From Squalus acanthias (lineage: Eukaryota), in contig CM059432.1 in assembly GCA_030390025.1 (NCBI GenBank), forward strand, positions 91,452,001 through 91,516,000: 64,000 bases of DNA, in the 5' to 3' direction. Shown here piece by piece: positions 12,557 to 47,208 of the stretch. The position numbers were made by a program, and so were the translations under genes. How positions within the stretch are numbered: the first letter of the stretch is position 1; each line of letters starts with the position of its first letter. A model generated the notes under the pieces. The model ran no database searches and had not been told where the DNA came from. It worked only from the letters and a program-made list of their open reading frames with translations.

Positions 12557-14292
12557 GTTGGTAGAGGACCTTTGTCTCACGGATGTTTAGTGTAAGGCCC
12601 ATGCTCTCGTACGCTTCGGTGAAGGTGTTGACGATGTTTGGAGTTCGACCTCCGAGTGAGCGCAGACGCAAGCGTTGTCTGCATACTGTAATTCGACAAC
12701 AGAGGATGGGACGACCTTGGATCTGGACTGGAGGCGACGAAGGTTGAACAGTTTCTCGTTTGTTCTGTAAATTAGCTCCACTCCAGCAGGGAGCTTACTG
12801 AGGGTGAGATGGAGCATTGCAGCAAGGAAGATCGAGAAGAGCGTTGGTGTGATGACACAGCCTTGCTTGACCCCGGTCCGTATGTGAATTGGGTCTGTGG
12901 TAGATCCGTTGGTCAGGATCACGACTTGCATGTCGTCGTGAAGCAGGCGGAGGATGGTGACAAACTTTTGAGGGCAGCCGAATTTGAGGAGGACACTCCA
13001 TAATTCCTCATGGTTGACAGTGTCGAAGGCCTTTGTGAGATCAAAGAAGGCCATATACAGCAGTTGGTGCTGTTCCCTGCATTTCTCTTGTAGTTGACGC
13101 GCAATGAAGATCATGTCCATTGTGCCCCTTAGTGGGTGGAATCCGCATTGCGACTCTGGGAGGAGCTCTTCAGCCACTGGGAGAAGGCAATTGAGGAGGA
13201 TTCTTGCGATGACTTTCCCTGTGGCAGACAGCAGGGAAACTCCTCTGTAATTACCACAATCGGACTTGTCACCTTTCTTGAAGATGGTCACAATTACGGC
13301 ATCTCTGAGATCTCCTAGCATGCTCTCCTCCTTCCAGATAAGAGAAATGAGTTCATGAATTCGCGCCAGTAGTGCTTCTCCACCATGCTTTAGTGCCTCG
13401 GCAGGGATTCCATCGCCACACAGTACTGCCCCCCGATTATCAAAATCCACGACAAGGCCTTCAACAACATGGACCACTTTCCATACCTCAGGAGCCTACT
13501 GTCAACAAGGGCAGACGTCGATGACGAGGTCCAACACTGCCTTCAGTGTGCCAGTGCAGCCTTCGGTCGCCTGAGGAAGAGAGTGTTTGAAGACCAGGAC
13601 CTCCAACCCAGCACTAAGCTCATGATCTACAGAGCAGCAGTGATACCCGCCCTGCTGTATGCCTCAGAGACATGAACCATGTACAGTAGGCACCTCAAAG
13701 CACTGGAGAGGTACCACCAACGCTGCCTCTGCAAGATCCTGCAAATCCATTGGCAGGATAGGCGCACCAACGTCAGTGTTCTCGCTCAGGCCAACATCCC
13801 CAGCATCGAAGCATTGACCATGCTCGATCAGCTCCGATGGACAGGTCACATCGTCCGCATGCCCAATACGAGACTCCCAAAACAAGCGCTCTACTCAGAG
13901 CTCCGACACGGCAAGAGAGCCTCAGGTGGGCAGAGGAAATGCTTCAAGGACACCCTCAAAGCCTCCTTGAAAAAGTGCAACATCCCCACTGACACCTGGG
14001 AATCCCTGGCCCAAGACTGCACAAAGTGGAGGAGAAGCATCCGGGAAGGCGCCGAACATCTCGAGTCTCTTCGCCGGGAGCAAGCGGAAGCCAAGCGCAA
14101 GCAGCGTAAGGAGCGCACGTCAACCCAAGCACCCCACCCACCCGTCCCTTCAACCACCGTCTGCCCCACCTGTGACAGAGACTGTAGGTCCCGCATTGGA
14201 CTCATCAGTCACCTGAGAACTCATTTTTAATGTGGAAGCAAGTCATCCTCGGTTCCGAGGGACTGCCTAAGAAGAAGAAGAAGAAGAAGAAG
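12557..14292 (+). mobile_element. RTE-clade LINE with 5' inversion (12557-~13414 antisense, ~13414-14292 sense)
   Basis: RT motifs (DLTKAFDTV, GVKQGCV, QYADN); C-terminal CxxC...HxxxH finger; (AAG)n tail; TSD AAGAYTCCTGTG (12545-12556, 14293-14304). Confidence 0.93.
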
Positions 14293-15425: not shown

Positions 15426-16254
15426 TGTGCACATTGGAATACAGCGTAGAATTTCTAAATTTGCCGATGACACCAAACTTGGGGGTGCGGCAAACAGTGA
15501 TGATGATATCAATCGACTGCAAAGGACATAGAAAGGCTAGCAGAATGGGCAGACAAGTGGCAGATGGAATTTAATACAGAGAAGTGTGAGGTGATGCATT
15601 TTGGCAGAAGGAACAGGGAGAGGCAATATACACTTAATGGCAAAGTTTTAAAGAGTGTGCAGGGACAGAGGGACCTGGGAGTTAATGTGCATAGGTCCCT
15701 GAAGGTGGCAGGATATATTAAGAGAGTTGTTAGCACAGCATATGGGGGTAAAAATTCAGTTGGTTGCACCTCCCGTTAGCGCCTTAAGAGGGCGCTAATG
15801 GGGCGCAAAGCCGCTAACGCCCGGGCGCAGCGATGTTTGCGCCGCTCGGGAACTTAACTAGAGATTGTGCGGCGGCGCTAAACCTTACCGCTGCGACCAC
15901 ATGCGCGCGCAGATTGTGACGTCATTCCATGGTGCAACGCCCTTGTGGCGCCCCGGAGCGGAAATTGAGTGGCGCCCCCTGCCTTACCGCCTGGCGCATC
16001 CAACGACCGGAAGACTGGAACGCTATCAATCGCTGTGGGGCTGGGGGGGGGGGCGCTATTTAAAGGGGGCCTCTTCCTGTCTTTTTCTGTGGTGGACATT
16101 TTTGCACCACTCATTCTGAGAGAGAGAGAGAGATTCGGAGAGAGAGAGAGACTTCTGCATTGACTCAACGCTTTGTGAGGTAGTTTTGCCTACTGATCCT
16201 AACTTCGCTAGTACTTTAGTTGCTGTCCTTCATTACTTTGCTTGCAAAGAGACT

Positions 16255-17415
16255 ATGGGGGCTGCACTGATTGGGGGCGTCGTCCTGCTCCAGCTGAATC
16301 GGAGGACACAGAGACGCAGAGAGAGAGTGGCAATGATGGCCAGACGGAGGAGGGCCAACAGGCGTATGTACAGGAGAGCTTACCCTCCCAGGGTATATCG
16401 TGAACAGCTCTCCTACCTTCATATGTCTGAGGAGCTGTGTTTGCGAAGGCTGCGATTCAGCAAGGAGGTGGTCACTGAGCTCTGCCATCTGCTGCAGCCA
16501 GATCTGCAGCCTCAACTGAGGTCCAGGACGTCTCTGTCGGTGGCAGTGAAGGTCACAGTGGCTCTCAACTTCTACGCTACTGGCTCATTTCAAGCTGCTG
16601 CTGGGGACCTCGCCAATATCTCCCAGTTCGCGGTGCATTGCTGCATCCGGCAGGTCACAAATGCCCTCTTTAAAAGGAGACGAGAGTTCATCTCTTTCCC
16701 CATGACCCCAGACAAGCAGCGTGACCGCGCTCTGGGCTTTGCGAGGGTAGCGGGCTTCCCCATGGTGCAGGGCGCCATTGACTGCATGCATGTGGCTTTG
16801 CGTGCTCCGCATGAGAATGCCGAGGAATTCCGGAACAGAAAGGGGTTCCATTCCTTGAATGTTCAGTTGGTCTGTGACCACAGACAGCTGATACTCGCTG
16901 TCAATGCCCACTATCCTGGCAGCTGCCACGATGCTTTTATCCTGCGCCAGACTACTGTGGCAGAACTTTTCGAGGCACCGCATCAGCCAGTTGGTTGGCT
17001 TCTCGGGGACAAGGGGTATGCATTGAGCACCTGGCTGATGACACCGCTCCGTATGCCCAACACCCCTGCTGAGCTGCGGTACAATGAGAGCCATCAAGCT
17101 ACCAGGAACATAATTGAGCGCACAATCGGCGTGCTGAAGCAACGGTTCCGCTGTCTCGACCATTCTGGAGGAGCCCTGCAGTACTCGCCTGAGCGAGTAT
17201 CCAACTTCGTAGTTGTGTGCTGCATGTTGCATAACATGGCAATCCTCAGGACCCAGCCAATGCCACCAGGCCTTGGAGCACCACCAGAGGAGGAGGAGGA
17301 AGAGGAGGAAGAGGACGAGGAAGATGATCATCAGCAGCACCAAGGCGGGAGGGTGGCCCACAATGGTGAAACTGCAAGGGCCGTCCGTCAACGGCTAATA
17401 GCAAGCCGCTTCTAG
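16255..17415 (+). CDS. Harbinger DDE transposase (HARBI1-like), 386 aa, uninterrupted
   Basis: Motifs RLRFSK, LNFYATGSFQ, GAIDCMH, RNRKGFHSLNVQLVCD, PGSCHDAFIL, LLGDKGY, IERTIGVLKQRFRCL, CCMLHN; ATG 16255; TATTTAAA at 16057. Confidence 0.95.
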   Translation: MGAALIGGVVLLQLNRRTQRRRERVAMMARRRRANRRMYRRAYPPRVYREQLSYLHMSEELCLRRLRFSKEVVTELCHLLQPDLQPQLRSRTSLSVAVKVTVALNFYATGSFQAAAGDLANISQFAVHCCIRQVTNALFKRRREFISFPMTPDKQRDRALGFARVAGFPMVQGAIDCMHVALRAPHENAEEFRNRKGFHSLNVQLVCDHRQLILAVNAHYPGSCHDAFILRQTTVAELFEAPHQPVGWLLGDKGYALSTWLMTPLRMPNTPAELRYNESHQATRNIIERTIGVLKQRFRCLDHSGGALQYSPERVSNFVVVCCMLHNMAILRTQPMPPGLGAPPEEEEEEEEEDEEDDHQQHQGGRVAHNGETARAVRQRLIASRF

Positions 17416-17727
17416 GGCCCCTGCTGTGGAAATGGCTTCTGCCATTGCTAACAACATCAATGAACCCAGCACGCAACCCCTAAGCCGGCCAAGGCACCAA
17501 TAATTCCAACCACCAACCATGTATATTTTGAATACAGAAACTTATTTATTTTACAAACTCTGTGTGTGTCAATTCCTCATGACAAACTCATAGAAATAAA
17601 CACAAAAAAACAGTCAATAACATAACTGGTTCTCACAACCTGGAGATAATGTCCAAAACACTAAACAAAAGTTGGACCATGAACCTCGACCTTTAATAAA
17701 AAAATGACCAGCATTTTGTCACACCTC

Positions 17728-19540
17728 CTACTTTTTGCCCTTCGAGGGTGATCTCCTTCCCTTGCGCACTTCCCCCCTTCTAACCCTACTGCTCCTCCGT
17801 AATGGGACCTCAGTGGCTGCAGCAAGGCTGGTGGAAGGCTGCTGCTCGTCAGACCCTGACACTGCAGATGCCCCTGAAGGACGGCCTCGACCAGTTCTGG
17901 GCCTGGAGGGCCCGGCTGCAGACTGCACCAACTCTGCATGGGCGGCAGCAGTCTGTCCTACAGGCGGTGGCAAGTGCAGTGGAGAAGTGACAGTGTTGGC
18001 AGCAGGAATGCTGTCATCGTGAGAGAGGACAGCAACTCCCTGCTCGCCCGACACACTGGCACTCCCATGGGGCAGCACTTCAGCATCCGGAGCAATCTGC
18101 TGGAGAACAGATTGCTGGCCTGCTGCGGCGCGGTGACAGCCCCGGGGACATGTGAACGAACCATCGAGGTTGGCAGCAGTCTGTGCTCGCGTGGCCTCAA
18201 TCTGAGTCTGCATGAGAGCAGTCAGAGATGGGATCACGGCAGCCAGTGACTGAATTGCAGCACTAAGCATTAGTGTGGCATCCACCTGTGCTACAGCGAA
18301 GTGCTCCACACTCCTTGCCAGTGACTCAATGCATTCGGGCACCCTTCCCACTGCACCCATGAGCTCAGTGTGCATGCCCACCGCCTGGGTGTTCATTTCT
18401 GTGATCAGCCGCTCCTCCTCTGCGTCCATTGCAGTAGGAGTGTCTGGCATACTCTCCCTCTGGGGAGAAGGCCCCCGTTCTTCCCTACCCCCATGGCGTT
18501 GCTGCAGCCCGCTGGGTCCTGGAGCTTCACCCTCATCAGACCCTTCCCCCCTGCTCCCCTCCAGGGAAGGCGTGTTCCCAGTGTGGGCATAGGCTTCCTC
18601 GGGAGAGGGTGGCACTGATGCTCCGGCTTCCTCTTCCTCCTCGGCTGCAGCTTCACTCCCAGTGGCAGCTTCAGGACCCGTCTCCTCAGCTGGTGAATCA
18701 CCATCTGAAAGCAGGGAGGTACAAGAGTGGCTTTAGCGTGAGGACAGGGTGGCAGTAAGGGAGGAATAAGTGCAGCGAGTTAGCAAGTTGGATTGAAAGT
18801 GTCAAAGGCTGGTGTTGTGAGGGACAAGTGGAAGGACAGAGGACAAAAAGGTGATGACCTTACCATTGCAGTCCAGAACGGGGTCGGCGTCTCCAGTGGC
18901 GACGGGACCGATCACCCGGCTTGCCACAATCCTGTGGACGCGCTCCTCAAGATCGCTGAGGGGTTGCAGCTGAGGCCGCCCTCCACCTGTCCGTTGCTGC
19001 TGTCTCCTATTATGCGCCAGCTTGGCCTGCAAGTAAAAGGACAGCATCTGAGTAAATATACAGCCATGGTCTTGCCTGATGTGCCTCCCATAGGTGAATA
19101 GCCCTTACTGTATGCAGCCATGGTCTTGCCTGATGTGCCTCCCATAGGTGAATAGCCCTTACTGTATGCAAAGTGTGGAATGTGTGTGTGTGTTTGATGA
19201 AAGGGCCATAGGTGTTGGATGAGTGTTGTGCATTGGGGTTTTAAGACCCTCTGGCCATAGAGTGAGGTTGAGATGGAGGGATGGAGAGGTATTGAGAAAA
19301 AGCCACTCACCCTGACGACCCGAGTGAGGTCGTTGAACTTTTTGCAGCATTGAGTATGGGTCCTGGGCACCATGCTCCTGGAGGAGACGCTCTGAGCCAC
19401 CTCCCTCCACACTCTTCTGAACTCGCGTGGCAAAGGCCTCCTGCCACTCTCAGGGAACAGCATACATCGTCTGCGCTCCACTGCGTCAACCAGAGCATCC
19501 AAGGCCCGCTCGGTGAAGCGCGTTCTCTCACCCTCTCCAT
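17728..19540 (-). pseudogene. Harbinger Myb/SANT-like partner gene, 3 exons (19540-19311, 19026-18864, 18704-17728), frameshifted near the start
   Basis: RFTERALDALVDAVERRR...WREVAQSVS...RTHTQCCKKFNDL Myb-like domain; GT-AG introns in phases 0 and 1 keep the frame open to the stop at 17728; ATG 19540 is out of frame with the domain. Confidence 0.85.
19061..19170. repeat. 54-bp tandem duplication in intron 1 of the Myb partner gene
   Basis: cagccatggtcttgcctgatgtgcctcccataggtgaatagcccttactgtatg occurs twice (19061, 19115). Confidence 0.95.
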
Positions 19541-20376
19541 GCTTGGCAGCAAAATGGATTCACAGGTCTCTCCAGGCTGAGATTCAAGGCTGCAATGAGC
19601 AGGGTGTGGCTGGGGAGCAAGTGGCCCCCCCCCCCCGCTTTAAGAAGTGTCCGGCGCCAGTGTGTCTGTGTTCCCTCGCTAACTGGCAGCAGCTGCGCTG
19701 CGCTCGCGCGCTGAGTTAGCGCCTCACTCCTTGGCCTTTGCGTCTTAAGACAGGTGTGCAGCGCCTGATTTAGCACTCCACTCACCTCCTGGGGCGGTAA
19801 AAGTGAAGTTTCCAGTCAGTGGCGATAATTAGCGCCAGGCGCTAATATTTGCGTCCAGACGATATTTGCGCCCCAAACGGGGCGCGACCTAATTTTTCCC
19901 CCATGGGATCTTGGGTTTCAGAAATAGAGGTATTGAGTACAAAAGTAGAGAAGTTATGCTGAACCTTTATAAAGCGCTGGTTAGGCCACAACCGGAGTAT
20001 TGTGTCCAGTTCTGGTCACCACACTTTAGGAAGGATGTGAAGGCCCTTGACAGGGTGCAGAGGAGATTTACCAGAAGTGTTCCGGAGATGGGCTATCTTA
20101 GCAACAAGGACAGGTTGAAGAAGCTGGATTTGTTTTCATTAGAGCAAAGGAGGTTGAGGGGTGATTTGATAGAGGTGTACAAGTTTATGACGGGTTTGGA
20201 TAGGCTAGACGGGGAAAGGCTGTTCCCACTAGTTGATGGTACAAGGACTAGGGGACACAGATTTAAGGTTTTGGGCAAGAGATACAGGGGGTACGTGAGG
20301 AAAAGCATTTTTACGCAGCGAGTGGTGATGACCTGGAATTCGCTGCCGATGAAAGTGGTGGAAGCGGAGACACTCA

Positions 20377-20915
20377 GGGGGAAAAATTGAGTCGCGCCCC
20401 CATTGGGGCGCTAACTTTGCCGGGGTGCTACTTTTAGTGCCCCGAAGAAATTAGCGCCCCTGTGGCCGAAATTCATCGGTAGCGCCCTAAGAGGGAAGCG
20501 GGGTGCTACTGGAAGTGCCCCGCCTCCCTCTTGGGGCGCTGCAAGGGAATATCGCGACGCTACGTGCCACGGTATTGCAGGCCTTCCTCTCTTCTTAAAG
20601 GGGAGGGGACTTGCGCAGCGCGACCCGGGGTCTAGCTGGGCCATCAAGGATCGGAGTGCCGGGCTCATGGAGCGCAGCCGGCACTCCGCAGGGGGGCTGG
20701 TCAGGAGGCCGGGGACAGCAACGGGGGCAGGTGCTGGCAGGCGGCCAGCAACAAAAATGGTCGCCCGGCACCTCGCCTCTAATTAGCGCCGCCCCAGCCG
20801 CAGGTAGGCCCCCCTGACCCCATCGGACATAACGTCCGGCGGTAAGTCAGGGGGCGCTACCGAAGACACGGCCGGGGCGCTGACGGGAGGCGCAATGCAA
20901 ACAAATTTTTGGGCC
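20377..20915. mobile_element. Harbinger non-autonomous element (MITE, 539 bp)
   Basis: Ends GGGGGAAAAATT / AATTTTTGGGCC; TSD TCA (20374-20376, 20916-20918); empty site matches the CR1 copy at ~980-1010. Confidence 0.92.
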
Positions 20916-21075: not shown

Positions 21076-21971
21076 GGGGGAAAAATTCAGTATCGCCACG
21101 TTTGGGGTGCAATTATCGGCCGGGCACAAAGATTAGCGCCTGGCGCTAATTATCGCCTTCGACTGCAAACTTGACTTTTATCGCCCCTGGAGGTGATTGG
21201 AGCGCTAAATCAGGCGCTACACACCTGTCTTAAGGCGCAAAGGCCGAGGATCGAGGAGCTAACTCAGAGCGCTGGCGAAGCTCATGTGATGTCAGTCAGC
21301 AATGGAACACAGACACAATGGCCCCGGCCAGTTCTTAAAGGGGAGGGTTGATCTTGCTTTCCATCCACATCCTGCTCATTGCAGCCTTGAATCTCGGCCT
21401 GGAGAGACCTGTACATCAAATCTGCTGGAAAGAACAACGGAGAGACCAGGGAAAGAGCTCAGAGTGCAGCCCCCACAATCTCTTCTAAATCGATACAAGG
21501 AAGGGCAAATCAAAATGAACCTGCAAAGTGCTGCTCAGTACCCAAAACTCCTTCACACAGCGTTGAATCTCTCCAGAAGTCTCTCTCTCTCTCTCTCTCT
21601 CAGAATGCGTGGTTCAAAAATGTCGCCAACAAAAAAAGGCAGGAAGCGGTCGCATTTAAATAGTGCTCCCCCAGTCCCTTCCTGACTGCAAAACGCTGCC
21701 CTCAACCTGTCGTTGCTAGCGGCAGGCGGTAAGGCAGGGGGCGCCACTCAATATCCGCTCCGGGGCGCTACCGGGGCGTTGCGCACTTGACTGACGTCAC
21801 GATCTGCCGGCGCAGGAGATCGTGGCGGTACTGTTTAGCGCCGCCACAAAATGTCCAGTTAATTTCGCGAGCGGCGCAAACATCGCCGCGCCCGGGCGCT
21901 AGTTGCTTTGCGCCCCATTAGCGCCCTCTTAAGGTGCTAACGGGAGGCGCAACCAACTGAATTTTTCCCCC
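21076..21971 (-). mobile_element. Harbinger internal-deletion derivative (896 bp), inverted relative to 15745-19902
   Basis: TIRs GGGGGAAAAATTCAGT at both ends; TSD TAT (21073-21075, 21972-21974); both halves align to the ends of the full-length element. Confidence 0.93.
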
Positions 21972-23139
21972 TATGAGTCTATGTGTGGGGCTTTTGTATG
22001 TAGTGCCTAAGATTAGAGGAAGAAGCAATATGAGAGGAGACTGGGAACTAAGTGGATTGTGTGAATTGAGGAAGGAGTCATAAGAGGAGGTGCAGATTCT
22101 GCAACATACACACGGTGAGAACAGCATGCCATTAGTGGAAGGTGTAGAGACAGCAAGCAACAGGTGAGTGTGGTTTGCAGACTACCTGATATGGTAATTG
22201 TTTCCTGGGGTGTTTGGAGTGTATCAATAGCATGAAAGCTTCATGCTGTGGTAACCTTCACCGCTACGTAAAGCGCTGTTCCCAGTTCAGTTGTTATCTG
22301 CAGGTGATACAACCCTTTTCCCACCTGTCTTGTGAAGCTGTGGTGGCAAAAATAGGACCCCTCTGATATGTCCAGGTATGTGTAGAGGGGTTTATAAATG
22401 CAGGTCCTAGGGTAATAATAGGTGTGGTCAAAGCACCTTGGGTGTCATTGAACCTGCATCTGTTAACCCCTCATACACTCTGTTTCCTCATCTAAACCAT
22501 GTAGGGGAATACACACTTTCTGTGGTTCACCAGCAACCAACAATGATGAAAGAAGGAAAACAAAAAAATGATAAAATGTCAGAATACCCAGAAAAGCATT
22601 AAGTGAAATTCAGCAAGATTTAACTAAAAACATAAAACAAAGGGGAAAAATTCGTCCCCTTAGCATCTCCATTAGCGGCAGCAGATGGTGCTAATGGGGC
22701 GCAAGACCAGTATCGCCGGGGCAAGGCGAATCCAGCACTGCATGCCAAATCCAGCCCCCCCCCACCCCCGCTGCGCCGCCAGTAAGAGGTATCGCCGGGA
22801 ACATCAATGTCAGGTGGATCGTGATGTCAGTGAGTGTACAACGCTCACTGACTGCCCAATCTGCTAAATTGATTCTCGCCACCTACCTTAGCGCCTGGAG
22901 TAAACACCGACAGGGAGAGCTGACGTGAAACACCAGGAAGCCAGCTCCAGGGACGTAATTTACAGGGATCATCAGTAATCACTCGCAGCTGTCAGGTTAG
23001 TGCAGTTTTAGTGGTTTCTTGTCAGTTTCATCTACTGCAAGAGTTTAATTCAGTAATTCCAAGATTCTTTTGTATCAGGAGTCTTGTGGCTACTGAAAGG
23101 TAGCTACATTTATTTCTCAAAGAATCAAACTGTTACACT

Positions 23140-24410
23140 TGGTAACATTAAAGGGGGCTGTACTGGCAGTCGACCTCGCCCTCCAGGATCTACAGCGGAG
23201 GGAGCGTAGGCAGCGAGAAAGACTGGAGCATGTGCCCAGAGAGAAGAGGAGGGCCATCAGGGCTCTCAACAGGAGGCCTTACCCTCCGAGGGTATTCCGA
23301 CAGCACTTCTCCTACCTTCAATTAAGCGAGGAGCAGTGTATTAGAAGGCTTCGCTTCACCAAGGAGGTGGTCACAGAACTCTGCCACCTTCTGCAACCAG
23401 ACCTCCAGCCTTGTGGAGTTGAGGTCGATGATCAGCCATGATCTTATTGGATGGCGGAGCAGGCTCGAGGGGCCGTATGTCCTACTCCTGCTCTTATTTC
23501 TGTTCTCAGACCAGGGCAACCACGGCTCTCCCAGTGGCAGTCAACGTCACCTGTCGCCCTCAATTTCTTCACCAGTGGATCCTTCTAGTCTGCAACATGA
23601 GACATAGCTAACAGCTCACAGTTCGCCATCCATCGCTGCATCCGGGAGGTCACAGAGGCTCTCTATAGTAGAGAGAAGCAGGACGAGTGTGCATGTAGCT
23701 TTGCCAGGATAGCGGGATTCCCCATGGTGCAGGCGCCATCGACTGCACCCATGTGGCTTTGTGGGCACCGCATAAAAATCCTGAGATCTTCCGTAACCGC
23801 AAAGGCTACCACTCACTTAATGTGCAGTTGGTGTGCGACCATGCACAGCGAATCCTCATCGTCAATGCTCACTATCCTGGCAGCAGCCACGATGCCTTCA
23901 TCCTGCGCCAGCACTCTTCCAGCCACCACATCAAGTTCACGGCTGGCTGGTCGGAGACAAGGGCTATCCGCTCTCCAGCTGGCTCATGATTCCTCTCCGC
24001 AACCCCAACACTCCTGCCCAGCACTCATATAATGACAGCATGGTGCCACCAGGAACATCATCGAGCAGACCATTGGGCTACTGAAGCAAAAATTCCACTG
24101 CCTTGACTGATCGAGAGGAGCCCTCCATACTCGCTGAGAGTGTATCCCATTTTGTGGTGGTCTGTTGCATGCTCCACAACTTGGCCATAATGAGGGCCCA
24201 GCCCTTGCCAGCAGGGATTGCAGGACCACCTCAGGAGGAGGAAGAGGGAGAGGACAAGGAGGAGGAGGACAAGGAGGAAGAGGAAGACAAGGAGGACGAG
24301 GAGGAGGACGAGGAGTAGGAGGAACAGGAGCGAGGGAGGAGGCAGCCACACAATCGGCCTTCCGGAAGGATGGTCTTTGACTGCCTTATCAGACTACGGT
24401 TCAAATTAAT
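23140..24410 (+). pseudogene. Harbinger transposase pseudogene, interrupted by a CR1 3' tail (~23412-23505)
   Basis: RRPYPPRVFR, RLRFTKEVVTELCHLL, RNRKGYHSLNVQLVCD, GDKGY, CCMLHN in shifting frames. Confidence 0.9.
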
Positions 24411-24587
24411 TAAACACCAGATCCCCGTTGCTCACCACATCCCCATCATACCATCCCTGTCGCAGGCCATATCACAGCGCAAAGCTGAATTGAGACACAC
24501 CACAAAAGAATCCAAATGGAATTAATAAATTTATCAAAAATCATGAACACATATTTAGACCAAAAATATTAACTATTCAGCCTTGTG

Positions 24588-26009
24588 CTATCCCTTAGTG
24601 CCTGTCGTTACTGTGCCTTTGCCTACTCTAGTGCTCCTACGATGTGTTGGCCCAGTGGCTGCAGCAGGGCTGGTGAAAGGCTGCTGAGTTTCCGTGTGGA
24701 AGACTTCAGATGGCCTTGCAGGACGCCCTCGACCAGCTCTGGGCCTGGAAGGCCGGCTGTAGACCGCACCCTCCTCAGCATGGGCAGCAGCAGTCTGGGC
24801 TGGCTGGATGACAGGCAGCGAAAAGGGCAATGACGGAGTGGCAGTGGTGGGAGTAGGAATGCTGTCATCCTGAGAGAGGACAGCAGGTTCCTGCTCCACT
24901 GACCCACTGCCACTGCCCGGGGAAGCACCTCAGCATCCCTAGCAATCTGTTGCAGCACAGATTGCTGGCCTGCTGTGACACCGTGAAAGCCCCGGTCGAC
25001 GGTGGTAGGCCCAGCCACGATGGCAGCAGTCACAGTTTGTATGGCATCAAGCTGAGACTGCATGAGAGCAATCTGAGATTGAATGGTACAACCATAGACT
25101 GCATTACAGCACTAAGACATTGCATCACTTCCGCCTATGCTGCAATGGAAGCTGCCAGATCGCCCATCACACAGCGGCATCAGGTCTAGGTTGCCACGGT
25201 CTCTCTGGGAGTCTACCATCCTTTGCAGACTGGAAATGATGGGCTCCATGGTGTGCACAGAGCCTTGTGCAATGTTGGAGGCGGACTGCTCCATACTCCT
25301 TATCAGTGCCGAGAGGCTCTCGGGCACCCTCGCCATTGCACCTATCATCTCAGTATGCATGCCCATCACCCTTCTTCTAAAGGCCTCCCCATCGAGGTCC
25401 TCATCTGAGTCCTGTGCAGCAGAACTCGAGCACGAACTCGCCCTCCGGGGAGCTGGCCCCTGAGCTACCCTTTCCCGCTGCCCTTGCTGCAGACCAGTCA
25501 TTCCCGGTGCCTCACCCTGTGCAGATCCCACTACTATACTAGCCTCTAAAGAACAGCGTAGTGCCAGTATCTGAGCTGGTGCCTGTGGATGAGACATGCA
25601 GTGACGCGGTGTGTTCTTCCTCCTCCTCTTCTCCCTCCTTGCTCTCTATGATGTCCTCAGGGACAGGCTGCTCAGCTGCTTGCTCATTATCTGACAGCAT
25701 AAAGGCACAAGAGTCGGGTTAAGGTGAGGGGAGCGGGGCAGGAAGGGAGAAATGCATGCATACAGCATGATTAGCTGGAAAGTGTGAAACGCTTGTGGGG
25801 TGAGGGGGAAGTGGAACAGGAGAAGAAGGAGTAGGGATGAACATACCATTGTTGTCCCCAAGGGGGTCAACGTCGCTGCTGGCCACGGCGCCTACCAACT
25901 GGCGCCCAATGATTTGCAGCACATGATTCTCCAGCGCAAACAGTGGTTGGATGTCGGCTTGTCCCCTGCCTGTGCGCTCCTGCTCCCTCATATTGTGAGC
26001 CACCTTGGC
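24588..26009 (-). pseudogene. Harbinger Myb partner remnant (exon 2 26009-25847, exon 3 from 25690)
   Basis: AKVAHNMREQERTGRG; exon 2 is 163 nt as in element 15745-19902; C-terminal AGPSRPRAGRGRP-like segment. Confidence 0.8.
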
Positions 26010-26153
26010 CTGCAAGGGAAAGGAAAGTGTGTGAGTGAGTGTGAAGTAACATATCTTATAGTGAGTTGTGCTCCACGGGATTCCAAATGTTCGGAGCTCC
26101 CCCTATCTGCTGTCCACCTAGTGAGAACGCAACCTGCACTGTATAGGAGGCAA

Positions 26154-26484: not shown

Positions 26485-27166
26485 ACTGTATAGGAGGCAA
26501 GCAGGGTCTCTGGAGTCAAGGTGGCTCCAAGATAACAACCCTGGAAACAAAAGATCAGAAACAAGTCAACTCTCGGTGGCAGGCTCAGTAATCCAATACC
26601 TGAACCAGGTAAGTCCACAATCCTCCAAGACACCATCAATGATTGACCAACCAGCTGGGCTCATTAATGGAACTTGGATGGGTAGAAACATCAATGGGGG
26701 CCAGAATTCTTCCCAGTCAGCTCCAGAAAACCCTGCAAGTATGTCTCAAAGGGCAAGGTGCTCTAGCTGCACAAGCAGCGAGAAGCAGCTCAGTTAAATT
26801 TTAGCTTGTTAAACTCCAGCAGTCGCCAAACCTTGGCACCGCCATCCAGCACCTACGTTCCCTAGATTTGGCGAAGTGGGATGTGACCTTAGGGGGAGAG
26901 TGTGTGCACTCCATGGGGGCTAAATCTGATAGCCCCCGAAAACGGCCGTGGGAATCGCGATGTGCAATTAACTCGTACCCGTTCAACGTGATGCAAGCAG
27001 CACTGTTGATTGGCTGCACACATCAGCAGGGGGCACAACATCATGAGAGGCTAGCACCAGTTAAATCTAGCCTGCACTACTTAAAGCCAGCCTGCACCTC
27101 TTAAAGAGGAGGTGCATTGTGGCTGGAGCAGGTGCTGGAAGTTTCTGACCTGGGAAACACTCAATA

Positions 27167-29080
27167 ATGGCACAACATGGGAGAGAGCTTGCTCCAAGGT
27201 TTTCCGACACTGCAATGGAGGCCTTGGTGGAGGAGGTGGAAAGGAGGAGAGCTGTGCTGTATCCACAGGGGACCCTCCAAACACACGCTTAGAAGGCAGT
27301 GGGAGCAGATAGCCATGGAGTCCAGGAGTCATGCCGAGGACCTGGATCAGTGCCATAAGAAGTTCAATGACCTCACACGAGTGGTCAAGGTCAGTGAATG
27401 CATCTTCAAATCCCGTATCCTACCAAATATATCACTAATTTCAGCCATTGCTCAATGTACCACACCCCCATCACTCACCTACCAACAATCGCTATCATTC
27501 AGGACTCATACCTAATATTCATAGCTTCACCTCACCCTCACACACTTAGCACTGCTGCAAGCCTCACACTCACATCTCACAGCTTGCACACACTGCCAGC
27601 TATTCAACCATGACAACCACATCACCCGAACACATCGCACCAAACTCACTGACACACTTCCCTCTCTCTTGCAGGATAAGGTGGCGCACAACTGGAGGCA
27701 GCAGGAGCTAATCGGCAGGGGACAGGTGCGTCTGCCAATGTTCCCTTTAAGCTGCGTGGCCACACGGCCGGGCAGCATGCTGCAGCTCCTGCGGAGCCAA
27801 CTCACCAGCTTTTAATTAGGAAAAACTGTGCATCCGCGGTATTTTGAATGGGCCGCGCAGCCCCTTAAAGGGACTGCGCACCCAAAAAAAATTAAAGGGA
27901 ACATTGGCGCCTGCATCTCCTAACTCACATGGAGGAGAGGGTGCTGGCCATTATTGGGAGGGCCATTGCTGAGGCCATGGCCAGCAGCGGGTCTGAAACC
28001 ATAGAAGATGACGGTATCCTCATACCTAATCCTCCTTCTCACATCCCACTTCCCCCTCATCCCACAATCACTTCTGATTTACAAGCTGCAGATGGTGTAA
28101 GCATACACCTCCTGTTTTCCCCTCCCTCCCCTCACCACAACCTTACCCTTGCACCTTTCTCCTTTCAGATACCCAAGAACTGCAGCCTGGCCAGGCAGTG
28201 GTGGAACAGCAGGAAGATAGTGACGATAAAGACATAACGTCACTTGATTTCACACTTGCAGCCACCAGCTCAGATACTGCTATTGCGCGTAATTTAGAGG
28301 ATAGCATAGAGGCGGGACATGCACGTGGCGGGTCACCGGGCCCGAGTGGCCTGCAGCCTGGACAGGGGGCAAAGAAAGTGCAGGTGCCAGTTCGCCCGAG
28401 GGCGAGAACGCACACAAGTTCTGCTGCAGAGGACTCAGATGAGCATTTCGATGGGTCAGGCTACAGAAGAACGCTGATGGCTATGCACAATGAAATGCTT
28501 GGTGCATTGGGAAGCCTGCCAGAAAGCCTGCGTGCAATGTCAAGGTGCGTGGAGCAGTCTGACACAGGGTTTTGCGCAGAGCTTGGAGCCCATCCTTTCC
28601 AGCATGGAAGTGATGGCCAACTCCATTAGCACACTTGTGGACCTAACCATGATGCAGCATCTGATGACAGATATCTCATCTTCCATTGCAGCACGAGCAG
28701 CAGCCACCCAACGTCTGAGTGCTACAGTGGAAGCTCAGACTGCTGTCATGGCTCTGGATTCCAGTGTTCAAAGGGGGCTTGCAGGGTATCACAGCAGTCC
28801 AGCAATCAGTCCTCTAACAGATTACTAGGATTGCTGAGGCGCTGCCCTAGGTGAGTGGTAGTGGCTCTGTGGAGCACGAACCTGCTGTCCTCTCTCAGGG
28901 TGACAGCATTCATACTCCCACCACTGCCACTCCACCAATACCTTTGCTATTGCCTGTCAGCCAGCCAGCCTAGACTGCTGCTGCTATGCAGAGATGGTGC
29001 AGGGCCTCCTAGACCCAGAATTGCTCGAGGTCGTCCTTCACGGCCATCTGCAATCTCCCCCACTGAAAGTCAGCAGCCAC
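27167..29080 (+). pseudogene. Harbinger Myb partner pseudogene (exons 27167-27389, 27675-28013, 28169-~29080)
   Basis: MAQHGRELAPRFSDTAMEALVEEVERRR...QCHKKFNDLTRVVK|DKVAHNWRQQ; GT-AG introns; frameshifts and a hAT insertion. Confidence 0.85.
27736..27906. mobile_element. hAT-type MITE (171 bp)
   Basis: 15-bp perfect TIR CAATGTTCCCTTTAA; 8-bp TSD GCGTCTGC/GCGCCTGC. Confidence 0.9.
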
Positions 29081-30047
29081 CACAAATCTTGACACCCGCT
29101 CTGTGAGTACTGCTGGGCTCCTCCAGAGTGGTCCAGGCAGCTGAAGCATTGTTTCAGAACATCATAGTCTGCTCCATCACATTTCATGTGGCAGCATGGC
29201 TTTCATTGTATGCATGCTGCCCAAGTGTCCGTGGGTTGCGCACTGGTATCATGAGCCAAGATGTCAGCGGATAGCCCTTGTCCCCCAGTAGCCAGCCTTT
29301 GGTTTGCTGTGGTGGCTCAAATGCAGATGGCACAGCGGACTGCCGCAGAGTGAAGGCATCATGACTGCTGCCAGGATACCGGGCATTGACCTGCATGACT
29401 CAGTGCCTATGGTCGCACAGCAGATGGACTATGAGGGAGTGGAATCCCTTTTGGTTCCGGTACATGGCAGAGTTGACATGCAGGCACCCGCAAAGCGATG
29501 TGTGTGCAGTCAATGGCACCCTGCACCATGGGAAAACCTGCAAACCTTGCGAAGCAGCGTGCTCGCTCCGCCTGCTGCTCTCTGGCGAGAGAGAATGAAA
29601 TATATTCAGCTCTCTTTGAATAGAAAGCGGCAGTGACCTCCCTTACGCAACACTTGATGGCAAACTGTGAGATGTTGCCAATATATCCAGTTCCAGGGTG
29701 GAAGGAACCCGACGCGTAAAAATTCATCACCACGGTCACCTTCACAGCCACTGGCAATGCGGTCCTTGTCCTGTTGCAATTGTAGCTGCAGCAGGTGGCA
29801 GATTTCAGTGAGGACATCCTTACTGAAGCACAGACGTCTCACACGTTGTTCCTTGCTGAGGTTCAGGTCGGAGAATTGCTCCCTGAACACCCTGGACGGA
29901 TATGACCTCTTGCTGAGAGCCCTTCTCCTTCTCCTTCTCCTTCTCCTCCTCCTCCCTCTTCCAGCAGCTTGTCCTGCTCTGCGTGGCCTCTGTTCATTCT
30001 CCAAGTCTTGCTGTCCTCCAAGGGGAATTCCTACTAGTGCACCCATG
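29080..30047 (-). pseudogene. Harbinger transposase pseudogene
   Basis: MGALVG...YPSRVFREQ, FYASGSF, GFPMVQGAIDCTH, PGSSHDAF, LLGDKGY, YNESH in shifting frames. Confidence 0.9.
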
Positions 30048-30220
30048 GCTGGTAACAAGTGGTTTGTGCAGAAGCCTTGAAGTCAGGAAAAAGTCTTTCA
30101 GCACCTGCCACACCACTCCCTGTCGACTTTAGCAACTTTAAACAACTATAGAAAACACCAAACACTTGCAGACATGTACCAACAGCCAGAAGAAATCAAC
30201 CAGCAACTAACCTGTAAGTA

Positions 30221-30672
30221 AAAAAAAAGAAAGACTTGAATTTATATCGCACCTTTCATGACCACTGGACGTCTCAAAGCACTTTACAGCCAACGAAGTA
30301 CTTTTTGAAGTGTAGTCACTGTTTCATTGTAGGAAACGCGGTATTCAATTTGCACACAGCACATCCCACAAACGGCAATGTGATAATGACCAGATATTCT
30401 TATTTTGTTATGTTGATTGAGGGATAAATATTGTCTGGGGCACTCCTCTGCTCTTCTTCGAAATAGTGCCATAGGAGCTTTTATGTCCACCTGAGAGAGC
30501 AGACGGGGCCTCGGTTTAACGTCTCATCTGAAAGACAGCACCTCTGACAGTGCAGCACTCCCTCAGTACTGCACTGGAGTGTCAGCCTAGATTTTTGAGC
30601 TCAAGTCTCTGGAGTGGAACTTGAACCCACAACCTTCTGACTCAGAGGTGAGGGTGCTACCAACTGAGCACT
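30221..30672 (-). mobile_element. tRNA-derived Deu-domain SINE (SacSINE1-like)
   Basis: Reverse complement of the SINE at 42885-43349; (TCTT)n tail. Confidence 0.85.
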
Positions 30673-31085
30673 GCGGGGGTGGTTCTTCCTGCTGCTGAAC
30701 GCGTGTTCAGCTGTGCGAGTTTAAGAGAGGGCGTTAGCTGGAGCGTTGAGCTCCAAAATGGCAGCGCTGGCATCAAATCAGCGTTGCACGCTGATTGACG
30801 CCATGATGTGCCTGCTCTGCATCATTCTGGCGGGCGTTCACTGCACGCTCGCTAATGCCCTCACCAATATGCCGCTGGGCGCAATTCACCATGGACGCCA
30901 TTTTTGGACCTTTAACGGCACTCGTAGCGCTCTTAATCTGAATTTTGTGCCGCATATTTCTTTGTAGCCTAATTTGGAGATTCTTAAACATGCTGATGGG
31001 CTTCGGAGCATCAGAAACCCAGCTGGCCAAAACAAACCACCAAAAGAAAATAATTATCTCTACACTTTGGCTAGACTAGACCTAG

Positions 31086-44264: not shown

Positions 44265-45461
44265 GTATTTAACAGCGGTATTACCGTGGAAGAGCCGACG
44301 TTTTCGTCCGTTTCTATGACTTGACAGATTACACTGATCTCCGGCTCTGCGGTTGCGGGGGGTGGGGGCGGTGTCCACATCGCAGCCTATGGAGGAGCAG
44401 TGAATGACAGGCCGCAACTTCAGGATTTCTGCATTAGGCTGCGCATGCGCTAAATCCTGAAGTTGCGGTCAGTTTCAGAGACGAAATGACGACAAACGCT
44501 GCCAGTTCGCTGTCATCAGGACCACAAATCTGGGCCATTCTGTTTTATTCTAATGTATGGGACAAAAATCATGTTTAAATCTGAATAGCAAGAAGTTGTG
44601 CTTTAAACAAGATTCTGATTATTTTAAATGAACAATACCTAGTCCATAGTGACTAAAATGGCTAGTGATTTTATTTTTATATATAAAATGGACTTTAAAT
44701 AACTTTTATATTATTTAGTAACTGATGACTAGAATTACTGTTAGTGATATTAGAGATGAATGTTTAAAAAGTTTGTTTGACATTCCTCTGTCCATATTTT
44801 AATGGTAAACCATTTGTAGACAGAATAATATCCTTCAAATATATTAAATATTCATCCACCAATATTGCAAACAGCAATTTTTACCCTTAAAATTAGAATT
44901 TGTAGCTGGCCTATACCCTATCTATTTAATGTGAGGTTCTTGTGTAGGATTAATATAACTAACACTCTATCATGCTCCCACAATGGCTTAGTTAGCAGAA
45001 GCCGCATGCAACTAAGTGATAGTGACCAGCTGAATACCTTTATACAAACAAGAGAGGTGATGCGAGAAAGAGAAGTGCAAGCGATATCACAGCACCACAA
45101 AGCAAGTGGTTAAGGGTCCAAAGTGATATTAGTGTCTCAAAAGAAAGCAGTAGCTGTGGGGGATTCTATTATTCAAGGGTTAGATAGCCTTTTCTGCAGC
45201 CAAGATCAGGAGTCCCGAATGATCTTTGCTTCCGAGGTGCAGGGGTAAGGAAAATAATGGAGCAGGTGGACAAGATTCAGGAAATACAGAATAAGCAGCC
45301 TGAAGATTTGGTTTGGTTGGGAACAATGGCTTAGGGAACATTGGAACAGGAGTAGGCCATTCAGCCCCTCGAGCCTGTTCCACCATTCTGTTAGATCATG
45401 GCTGATCTGTAATGGGATGGAACTCTTATAAAGAGAACTTGAAGCGTTTCTCTTCGCTACT

Positions 45462-46995
45462 CTTCGGCAGTCCCTCAGAACCGAGGATGACTTGCTTCCA
45501 CACTAAAAATGAGTTTTCAGTTGACCGATGAGTCCAATGCGGGACTTACAGTCTCTGTCACAGGTGGGGCAGACGGTGGTTGAAGGGGCGGGTGAGTGGG
45601 GTGCTTGGGTTGATGTGCGCTCCTTCCGCTGTTTGCGCTTGGCTTCCGCATGCTCCCGGCGAAGAGACTCGAGGTGTTCGGCGCCTTCCCGGATGCTTCT
45701 CTTCCACTTTGTGCGGTCTTGGGCCAGGGAATCCCAGGTGTCGGTGGGGATGTTTCACTTTTTCAAGGAGGCTGTGAGGGTGTCCTTGAAGCGTTTCCTC
45801 TGCCCACCTGGGGCTCTCTTGCCGTGTCGGAGCTCCGGGTAGAGCGCTTGTTTTGGGAGACTCGTATCGGGCATGCAGACGATGTGACCCGTCCATCGGA
45901 GCTGATCGAGCGTGGTCAAAGCTTCGATGCTGGGGATGTTGGCCTGAACGAGAACACTGACGTTGGTGCGCCTATCCTGCCAATGGATTTTCAGGATCTT
46001 GTGGAGACAGCATTGGTGGTACCTCTCCAGTGCTTTGAGGTGCCTGCTGTACATGGTCCATGTCTCTGAAGCATACAGGAGGGCGGGTATCACTACTGCT
46101 CTGTAGACCATGAGCTTGGTGCTGGATTTGAGGTCCTGGTCTTCAAACACACTCTTCCTCAGGCGACCGAAGGCTGCACTGGCACACTGAAGGCGGTGTT
46201 GGACTTCATCATCGACGTCTACCCTTGTTGACAGTAGGCTCCCGAGGTATGGAAAGTGGTCCACGTTGTCCAAGGCCTCGTCATGGATTTTGATGATCGG
46301 TGAGCAGTACTGTGTGGCGGGGGCAAGTTGGTAGAGGACCTTTGTCTTACGGATATCTAGTGTAAGGCCCATGCTCTCGTACGCTTCAGTGAAGGTGTTG
46401 ACGATGGTTTGGAGTTTGACCTCAGAGTGTGCACAGATGCAAGCGTCGTCTGCATACTGTAATTCGATGACAGAGGACGGGATGACCTTGGATCTGGACT
46501 GGAGGCGACGGAGGTTGAACAGTTTCTCGTTTGTTCTGTAAATTAGCTCCACTCCAGTGGGGAGCTTACTGAGGGTGAGATGCAGCATTGCAGCCAGGAA
46601 GATCGAGAAGAACGTTGGTGCGATGACACAGCCTTGCTTGACCCCGGTCCGTACGTGAATTGGGTCTGTGGTGGAACCTTTGGTCAGGATCACGGCTTGC
46701 ATATCGTCGTGAAGCAGGCGGAGGATGGCGACAAACTTTTGAGGGCAGCTGAATTTGAGGAGGACACTCCATAATCCTTCACAGTTGACAGTGTCGAAGG
46801 CCTTTGTGAGGTCAAAGAAGGCCATGTACAGCGGTTGGTGTTGTTCCCTGCATTTCTCTTGTAGTTGACGCGCGGTGAAGATCATGTCCATTGTGCCCCT
46901 TAGTGGGCGGAATCTGCATTGTGACTCTGGGAGGAGCTCTTCAGCCACTGGGAGAAGGCGATTGAGGAGGATTCTTGCGATGACTTTCCCTGTGG
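45462..46995 (-). mobile_element. RTE-clade LINE, 5'-truncated
   Basis: Long open RT frame (ORF 45755-46948: YADD, GVKQGCV); same family and 3' end as 12557-14292. Confidence 0.93.
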
Positions 46996-47208
46996 TAGGG
47001 AAGAGTTTGGTGTTAGATTAAGCAACAGGACAACCAGGATTGTAATTTCAGTATTACTGCCAGTTGCACACGCTGAGTCAGTTAAAGAGAAGCAGATTAG
47101 ATGTATCAACATGTGATGTAGAAGAGAAGGTTTCAGATTTCTTAGGCATTGGGGTAAGTTCTGGGGCAGGAAGAAGCTCCATGAATGGGCTGGGCTTCAC
47201 TTAATCCA

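Follow-up and report, generated by a model that had tools for sequence, protein, structure and literature searches.

The window examined here comprises 64,000 nt of the Squalus acanthias genome (GCA_030390025.1, CM059432.1: 91,452,001–91,516,000, forward strand), and all positions given below are positions in this window. At 15745–19902 lies a Harbinger element of 4,158 bp, in which a DDE transposase gene and a Myb/SANT gene face each other between 12-bp terminal inverted repeats (TIRs), the whole being flanked by a target site duplication (TSD) of 3 bp. A reading of the sequence alone had described it as complete, with two intact genes, and as a member of a recently active vertebrate family which one or two repairs could reconstitute. 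Our analysis makes it very probable that the element is a full-length copy of an abundant shark family of the Harbinger type (PHIS superfamily), which inserted into an older fragment of a long interspersed nuclear element (LINE), has decayed neutrally since and, its Myb gene being broken, is non-autonomous. For comparison, 23 listed public sequencing runs, with organism labels A–G plus two unlabelled samples, were screened for element words, and the contigs of four of them were placed against the window with a 90% filter: X1, the run of greatest depth from the organism matching best, and X11 (both label A), X10 (label E) and X12 (label F), labels B, C, D and G lying outside this comparison. 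Findings on variants rest on 40 of 224 variant rows and those on contig joints on 15 of 85 joints. The element and its host LINE comprise the following features.

15440–15741, plus strand: left part of the host LINE fragment; start approximate; continuous with 19903 onward in single contigs of X10 and X12
15742–15744, no strand: left TSD copy, ATG, from the sequence; empty-site contigs skip the element and 3 letters
15745–15756, plus strand: left TIR, 12 bp, differing from the right TIR at position 5 only; contig joints end at 15745
15757–16040, no strand: CpG-rich left subterminal region; CpG observed/expected ratio (o/e) 1.16; three motif copies
16255–17415, plus strand: transposase open reading frame (ORF), 386 residues, single exon; D176-D252-E288, DCMH, acidic tail
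17416–17727, no strand: AT-rich spacer between the two stop codons; polyadenylation-like hexamers at 17595 (plus) and 17545 (minus), from sequence only
17728–18704, minus strand: Myb-like exon 3, 977 nt, open as far as its stop codon; tblastn finds related segments in two decayed neighbours
18705–18863, minus strand: predicted Myb-like intron 2, GT-AG, from the sequence
18864–19026, minus strand: Myb-like exon 2, 163 nt; a 48% identical segment in a decayed neighbour, at 25848–26009
19027–19310, minus strand: predicted Myb-like intron 1, GT-AG; holds a 54-bp tandem duplication, 19057–19164
19311–19540, minus strand: Myb-like exon 1 from the ATG at 19540, with the Myb/SANT domain; 7-bp deletion at 19516/19517
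19640–19890, no strand: CpG-rich right subterminal region; CpG o/e 1.00; three motif copies
19891–19902, minus strand: right TIR, 12 bp, from the sequence
19903–19905, no strand: right TSD copy, ATG, from the sequence and empty-site contigs
19906–20376, plus strand: right part of the host LINE fragment, interrupted at 20377 by another Harbinger-type element; a 92.5% identical copy at 991–1296

The boundaries and the 3-bp duplication, placed where the sequence-only reading had put them, are independently proven by empty-site contigs in two runs: in one of X10 (358 letters, 9 differences) and one of X12 (299 letters, 9 differences), 15741 is followed by 19903, so that 4,161 letters are skipped, that is, the 4,158 bp of the element plus 3. 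These empty sites are paralogous copies of the LINE, not alleles of the focal locus. The TIRs, both starting with GGGG, pair at 11 of 12 letters, ATG stands on either side, and the computed chance of such a TIR and TSD at one given pair of ends is about 3e-8; the pair is absent from the 25 longest of the 70 inverted repeats given by the repeat finder. At the mismatched position 5 of the left TIR, a related element ending at 21971 carries the right-TIR letter in its matching end. Shifting the element by one base, with a TAT/CAT duplication, would yield the same empty site; this placement was rejected, since it requires more TIR changes and the joints have their ends at 15745 and 19902. A contig of X1 (side of 41 letters) connects 15740 with 19906, four other letters lying in between; it was not counted as a polymorphism of the focal insertion, being indistinguishable from a paralogous LINE copy. 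Joints running from 19902 to 15745 through 11 letters that resemble one LINE-tail unit occur in contigs of X10 (depth 36.1) and X1 (47.1), and look like two insertions one LINE-tail repeat unit apart. The host LINE itself is presumably CR1-like.

Both ends contain the motif TTAGCGCC or its complement, at 15776, 15791 and 15874 on the left and at 19716, 19829 and 19838 on the right, and the same motif is present at the ends of neighbouring elements; it is a candidate for, and likely constitutes, a Myb-binding site. The CpG-rich ends had been taken as undecayed, a mark of youth. Their composition is as claimed, with o/e of 1.16 and 1.00 compared to 0.45 for the whole window, but as an age marker it was rejected as weak, because the ends of visibly decayed neighbouring elements, with coordinates chosen by eye, still reach 0.63–0.93.

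The transposase ORF is uninterrupted and matches the Pfam family DDE_Tnp_4 with an E-value of 8.4e-39 (133.2 bits against a cut-off of 24.8). Homologues were taken as the best 120 of 291 with E-values up to 1e-20; 115 of these 120 are assigned by name to sharks or rays, and the top match is a sawshark protein with 70% identity. The three acidic residues singled out by the sequence-only reading are each the commonest in their column (D176 in 95/116, D252 in 90/114 and E288 in 77/117 homologues), and 50 of the 120 listed homologues keep all three. In an AlphaFold model with a predicted local distance difference test score of 89.3, D176 lies in a strand (171–182), D252 follows a strand (248–250) and E288 is within a helix (271–297), resembling the reference layout, in which the first D is located at the strands, the second after a strand and the E in a helix (PMC4482050, in the text available); D176, D252 and E288 would accordingly to this model be the catalytic residues. 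A search for solved structures related by sequence returned none beyond four chance matches, and Foldseek with the transposase model gave only weak integrase/transposase matches (best E-value 0.019). At none of the 90 columns conserved at 80% or more does the transposase depart from its homologues.

The residue M178, which turns the motif DCTH into DCMH, is present as the sequence-only reading had reported. The column has T in 79 and M in 19 of 115 homologues, and T in 39 and M in 7 of the 50 that keep the triad. Two groups of Harbinger-transposase-like proteins (P0019, P0022 and P0057; P0038 and P0040), each with about 90% identity between different orders of sharks and rays, likewise carry M at DCxH and look domesticated. 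Given the 19 homologues and the two conserved groups, M in this position is, in sequence comparison, a common state and a weak lesion without proven defect; the disabling change lies in the Myb gene instead. Its suggested origin from an ACG>ATG transition is a plausible guess, because CpG decay is seen elsewhere in the focal copy; position 16787 falls outside the 40 variant rows, and the two decayed neighbouring elements read DCTH, using other codons. In a tree comprising only homologues from the listed set, the focal transposase clusters with rows from sawshark and rays (99/99) and stands separate from the two conserved DCM-bearing groups.

The Myb/SANT gene is convergent with the transposase gene and has three predicted exons with GT-AG borders, as the sequence-only reading had proposed, and its exon 1 matches Pfam Myb_DNA-bind_5 (PF13873) with an E-value of 3.2e-07 (30.6 bits against a cut-off of 21.7). 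What had been overlooked is that the gene lacks an in-frame start. The three exons total 1,370 nt, which is not divisible by 3, and the spliced product from the ATG at 19540 ends after 114 residues; this ATG is in a different frame from the Myb domain, no in-frame start codon exists upstream of the domain, and in the Myb frame, open for 448 codons from 19517, the first methionine is residue 19, within the Pfam match. Contigs of three runs carry seven extra letters behind 19516, making up 207 of 207 in depth in X11, 23.1 of 23.1 in X10 and 24.3 of 69.9 in X12; with these letters added, the exons total 459 codons. Judging by the reading frames, Myb exon 1 of the focal copy is thus disabled by a 7-bp frameshifting deletion, which breaks the frame ahead of the DNA-binding domain.

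Further damage is apparent at six sites of the element (15901, 16417, 18068, 18402, 18591 and 19346), where at least 95% of the X1 depth reads another letter. Of these, three are CpG-type and five are coding; each of the five alters a residue, in the transposase once and in the Myb protein four times. Towards the end of the Myb domain, at 19346, in what we take to be its recognition helix, the focal copy has Cys and nearly all X1 depth has Arg. Few as they are, these private changes fit what neutral decay would predict. At least five private amino-acid changes thus accompany the deletion, and the claim that the focal copy is complete is not supported. The family being abundant and its copies close to each other, a consensus in which both genes are open is attainable.

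Several points weigh against this account of the Myb gene. No X1 contig holds the seven letters (0 of 405,634 in summed depth), perhaps because its contigs are short and do not pass the 90% filter; an entire subfamily, and not the focal copy alone, could carry the deletion; the longer exon 1 is backed by only one contig per run; and, the exons being predicted, an in-frame start could in principle come from a further exon upstream that went unrecognised. In addition, 184 of the 224 variant rows and 70 of the 85 joints lie outside the displayed set. The search for full-length Myb relatives with a 69-residue exon-1 piece as query scored none of 79 candidates, which is weak evidence, and a pattern scan of metagenome contigs gave no matches. 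Among the runs listed with element words none is given as RNA; contigs of X11, a run which we guess to be of RNA, are unspliced through intron 2 (18681–18875) and across the border of exon 1 and intron 1 (19141–19389), and the 15 joints include no splice joint, which is evidence on expression neither way. Intron 1 also holds the 54-bp tandem duplication, its units 98% identical; on the intron 1 side, 19141 is the end point of the longest contigs listed for X10, for X11 and for X12, which hints that the duplication is private to the focal copy or to a subfamily.

The family is abundant. In X1 the summed depth is 1.7e5–1.8e6 over the element and 32–124 over five unique-flank bins; depth sums are no copy number, and the contigs over the element are short, but the ratio of medians of about 7,300, or about 240 after division by the largest possible overlap, corresponds roughly to copies in the hundreds to thousands. 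Among the contigs listed, the longest depart from the focal copy at 26 of 1,978 (X10), 22 of 1,673 (X11) and 20 of 1,972 letters (X12), that is, by 1.0–1.3%; with a contig of a second subfamily kept, X12 shows 33 differences in 2,216 letters (1.5%). Since several variant rows are split in X1, X10 and X12, part of this distance is subfamily difference. The divergence of the host LINE is 2.5–3.0%, by which measure the element appears to be the younger of the two. At the mutation rate given for the epaulette shark (7e-10 per generation, confidence interval 1.4–14.1e-10; PMC10587355, in the text available), a rate from another shark species, 1.0–1.3% translates into 14–19 million generations (7–93 million), and an assumed private 0.3% into about 4 million, all estimates that CpG decay inflates by an unquantified factor. 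The family is therefore recent, as had been claimed, in sequence terms only; young by divergence, it is probably millions of generations old at shark mutation rates.

How the parent family would move can be sketched by analogy with Harbinger3_DR of zebrafish. That transposition needs both proteins, which the sequence-only reading had cited as established, is indeed stated for Harbinger3_DR and Ping/Pong (PMC2836001) and for Harbinger3_DR (PMC9179366), and, in the portions of these sources available, the Myb-like protein of Harbinger3_DR is described as binding both the ends and the transposase and as bringing the latter into the nucleus. By the same token, the Myb-like protein of the shark family would bind the element ends and carry the transposase to the nucleus as well as to the TIRs, and the DDE transposase would excise the element and reinsert it, with a stagger of 3 bp, where the target is loosely palindromic. 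The focal copy, unable to make a Myb protein of its own, would be movable only if a different copy supplied one; all that it might itself contribute is a transposase, whose activity is putative; mobilization in trans would be possible if its ends, the TIR mismatch included, are still recognized. Joints in X1, such as 16085–19768 and 15883–19562, and the related 896-bp element at 21076–21971 point to internally deleted derivatives.

Whether the rest of the family is still mobile, with intact two-gene copies in existence and new insertions segregating, is a separate matter, compatible with a broken focal copy; we regard it as possible but rather doubtful. The many near-identical pieces (of the 51,696 contigs placed in X1, 11,073 are alike at 99% or above, with flanks counted in) and the high abundance would suit continued mobility, as would the longer exon 1 in the dominant contigs of three runs. 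In unique flank, moreover, X1 departs from the window at 7 of 830 letters (0.84%), a figure of similar magnitude to the distance of 1.0–1.3%, so that insertions of such age could still segregate. On the other hand, the corresponding 14–19 million generations, or even the 4 million or so for 0.3%, speak against it, and the contigs of the four runs show neither an intact copy nor a locus-specific empty allele. That the focal copy itself is complete, functional unchanged or after alteration of the DCMH residue alone, is a reading largely refuted at the sequence level and one to which we assign very little credence: the open transposase ORF with its well-placed triad and the 448 open codons of the Myb frame are set against the lack of an in-frame start before the Myb domain, an earliest methionine of that frame inside the Pfam match, the 7-bp gap relative to three runs, Cys for Arg at 19346 and the mismatch in the left TIR. 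Least probable of all is a HARBI1/NAIF1-like gene pair domesticated by the host. Although homologues are annotated as 'putative nuclease HARBI1' and sharks and rays do have domesticated-looking relatives with about 90% identity across orders, the empty site and the abundance refute domestication; the TIRs, the TSD, the broken Myb gene, the private changes without bias to silent ones and the place of the transposase in the tree, apart from the two conserved DCM groups, also contradict it.

A recent horizontal transfer of the family among several marine animals is improbable as well, despite the wide occurrence of its sequence: 18 of the 23 listed runs contain at least half of the element words, with seven labels A–G and two unlabelled samples, the contigs of X10 and X12 are 98.7–99% identical across the element, and Harbinger transfer among marine animals has been published (PMC8437027 and PMC9179366, in the text available). 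X10 and X12, however, also carry the host LINE piece, at depths of 32 and 43 similar to the median element depth of about 42–43, show both subfamilies of the element together with the same excess of ends, and have no listed unique-flank contig, a combination explained by trace shark DNA. Their ratios of GA-microsatellite depth to element depth are 3,922 and 325, compared to 1.7 in X1. The near-identical copies under other labels thus look like trace shark DNA from which only high-copy repeats assemble. X22 and X23, which share study and label with X8, contain next to none of the element words, which is no proof of absence. The bolder combination, a still-mobile two-gene family with a relaxed duplication (neither TWA nor CWG) that recently passed at about 99% identity into several marine animals (labels C–G), is similarly hard to credit. 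A decayed, non-autonomous copy of an abundant shark family remains the reading that we prefer.

The surroundings of the focal copy are rich in related elements. A non-coding Harbinger-type element of 896 bp (21076–21971), 78–82% identical to both focal ends and with perfect 12-bp TIRs and a TAT duplication, sits in the short repeat tail of the same host LINE, and a second one (20377–20915), with a TCA duplication, lies in the same LINE copy, so that, together with the focal element, three Harbinger-type insertions are found in one LINE fragment. The LINE copy at 833–1296 is devoid of the 20377–20915 element and represents its empty site, with flanking matches of 92.5% and 93.2%. At 22642–26050 and about 26900–30900 lie two decayed Harbingers, both two-gene elements from related families; their transposase DNA is 67–69% identical, and they contain stops, frameshifts and inserted repeats, the latter also a rearranged Myb region. 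Two LINE reverse-transcriptase copies (12557–14272 and 45461–46998), which we take to be RTE-like, are 93% identical, one with a 420-codon open frame.

By its DDE_Tnp_4 domain, the placement of the triad, the Myb/SANT gene, the G-starting TIRs and the 3-bp TSD, the element belongs to the Harbinger-type (PHIS) superfamily. Its groups are told apart by their duplications, TWA, CWG, C|TNA|G and ANT (Han et al. 2015, PMC4482050, as far as the available text goes), and the focal ATG (CAT on the other strand) is neither the TWA of strict PIF/Harbinger nor the CWG of NuwaI, nor the C|TNA|G or ANT of NuwaII/Pangu; since it conforms to no TSD definition of Han et al. (2015), the element is filed neither as strict PIF/Harbinger nor as NuwaI. 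By its letters, the duplication appears to fit none of the TSD-defined groups, one site being thin evidence for a family preference. The duplications of the two neighbours are TAT and TCA, and TAT also occurs at one end-to-start junction of the family; a target motif A-N-N-Y/R-N-N-T is matched at 3 of 4 positions by the focal site and at 4 of 4 by each of the two neighbours, in three sites only. In other respects the element resembles both groups as described in the text available of PMC4482050: it shares with NuwaI TIRs of at least 12 bp (12–61 bp) starting with GGG, DDE and Myb/SANT ORFs, a length near the ~4.2–4.5 kb of that group and an animal host, the hosts named there including no cartilaginous fish, and with strict PIF/Harbinger two ORFs, TIRs below 60 bp starting with G and a length near the mean of ~4,124 bp. 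Autonomous elements are defined in the same source, in the part available, by two intact ORFs, a definition from which the focal copy departs because of the frameshift in its Myb gene. Nor does it show the marks of a domesticated gene, namely a single copy, the lack of TIRs and TSD and conservation at an orthologous site.

Among known systems, Harbinger3_DR and Harbinger3N_DR of zebrafish, the former reconstructed by Sinzelle et al. (2008, as cited in the text available of PMC2836001 and PMC3016246), likewise combine a DDE and a Myb-like protein with short TIRs, a 3-bp duplication and non-autonomous derivatives nearby, but, in a comparison by description, target AAACACCWGGTCTTT with a CWG core and not ATG. 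Harbinger-Snek of sea kraits is similarly abundant, with full-length copies, one-gene copies and short derivatives; it was horizontally acquired and has 269 intact copies in one species and RNA cover (PMC8437027, in the text available), unlike the focal family, the relatives of which are spread through sharks and rays and which has no intact or expressed copy among the contigs compared. The closest proteins, 'putative nuclease HARBI1' of sharks and rays (Pristiophorus japonicus P0001 and P0002, 61–70% identical and in the same clade), are automatic gene models, many of them decayed, without attached element anatomy.

Cartilaginous fishes have been described as poor in DNA transposons (PMC4350176), and a 2022 survey, in the text available, found no Harbinger in the elephant shark and called for other species (PMC9179366); Harbingers do appear in the repeat tables of the whale shark and the grey reef shark (PMC8455134 and PMC12498223, in the parts available). 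Our literature search, with Repbase, supplements and most subscription journals outside its scope, found no description of the focal family or of a full-length shark Harbinger. The family is a new one within a known superfamily, and the focal copy is an ordinary, broken member of it. The locus nevertheless adds the full anatomy of an abundant, low-divergence shark Harbinger family, together with a duplication outside the PHIS groups that are defined by their TSD. Should there be intact natural copies, the family would offer a ready vertebrate two-protein system for the study of target choice, as well as insertion markers in a slowly evolving genome.

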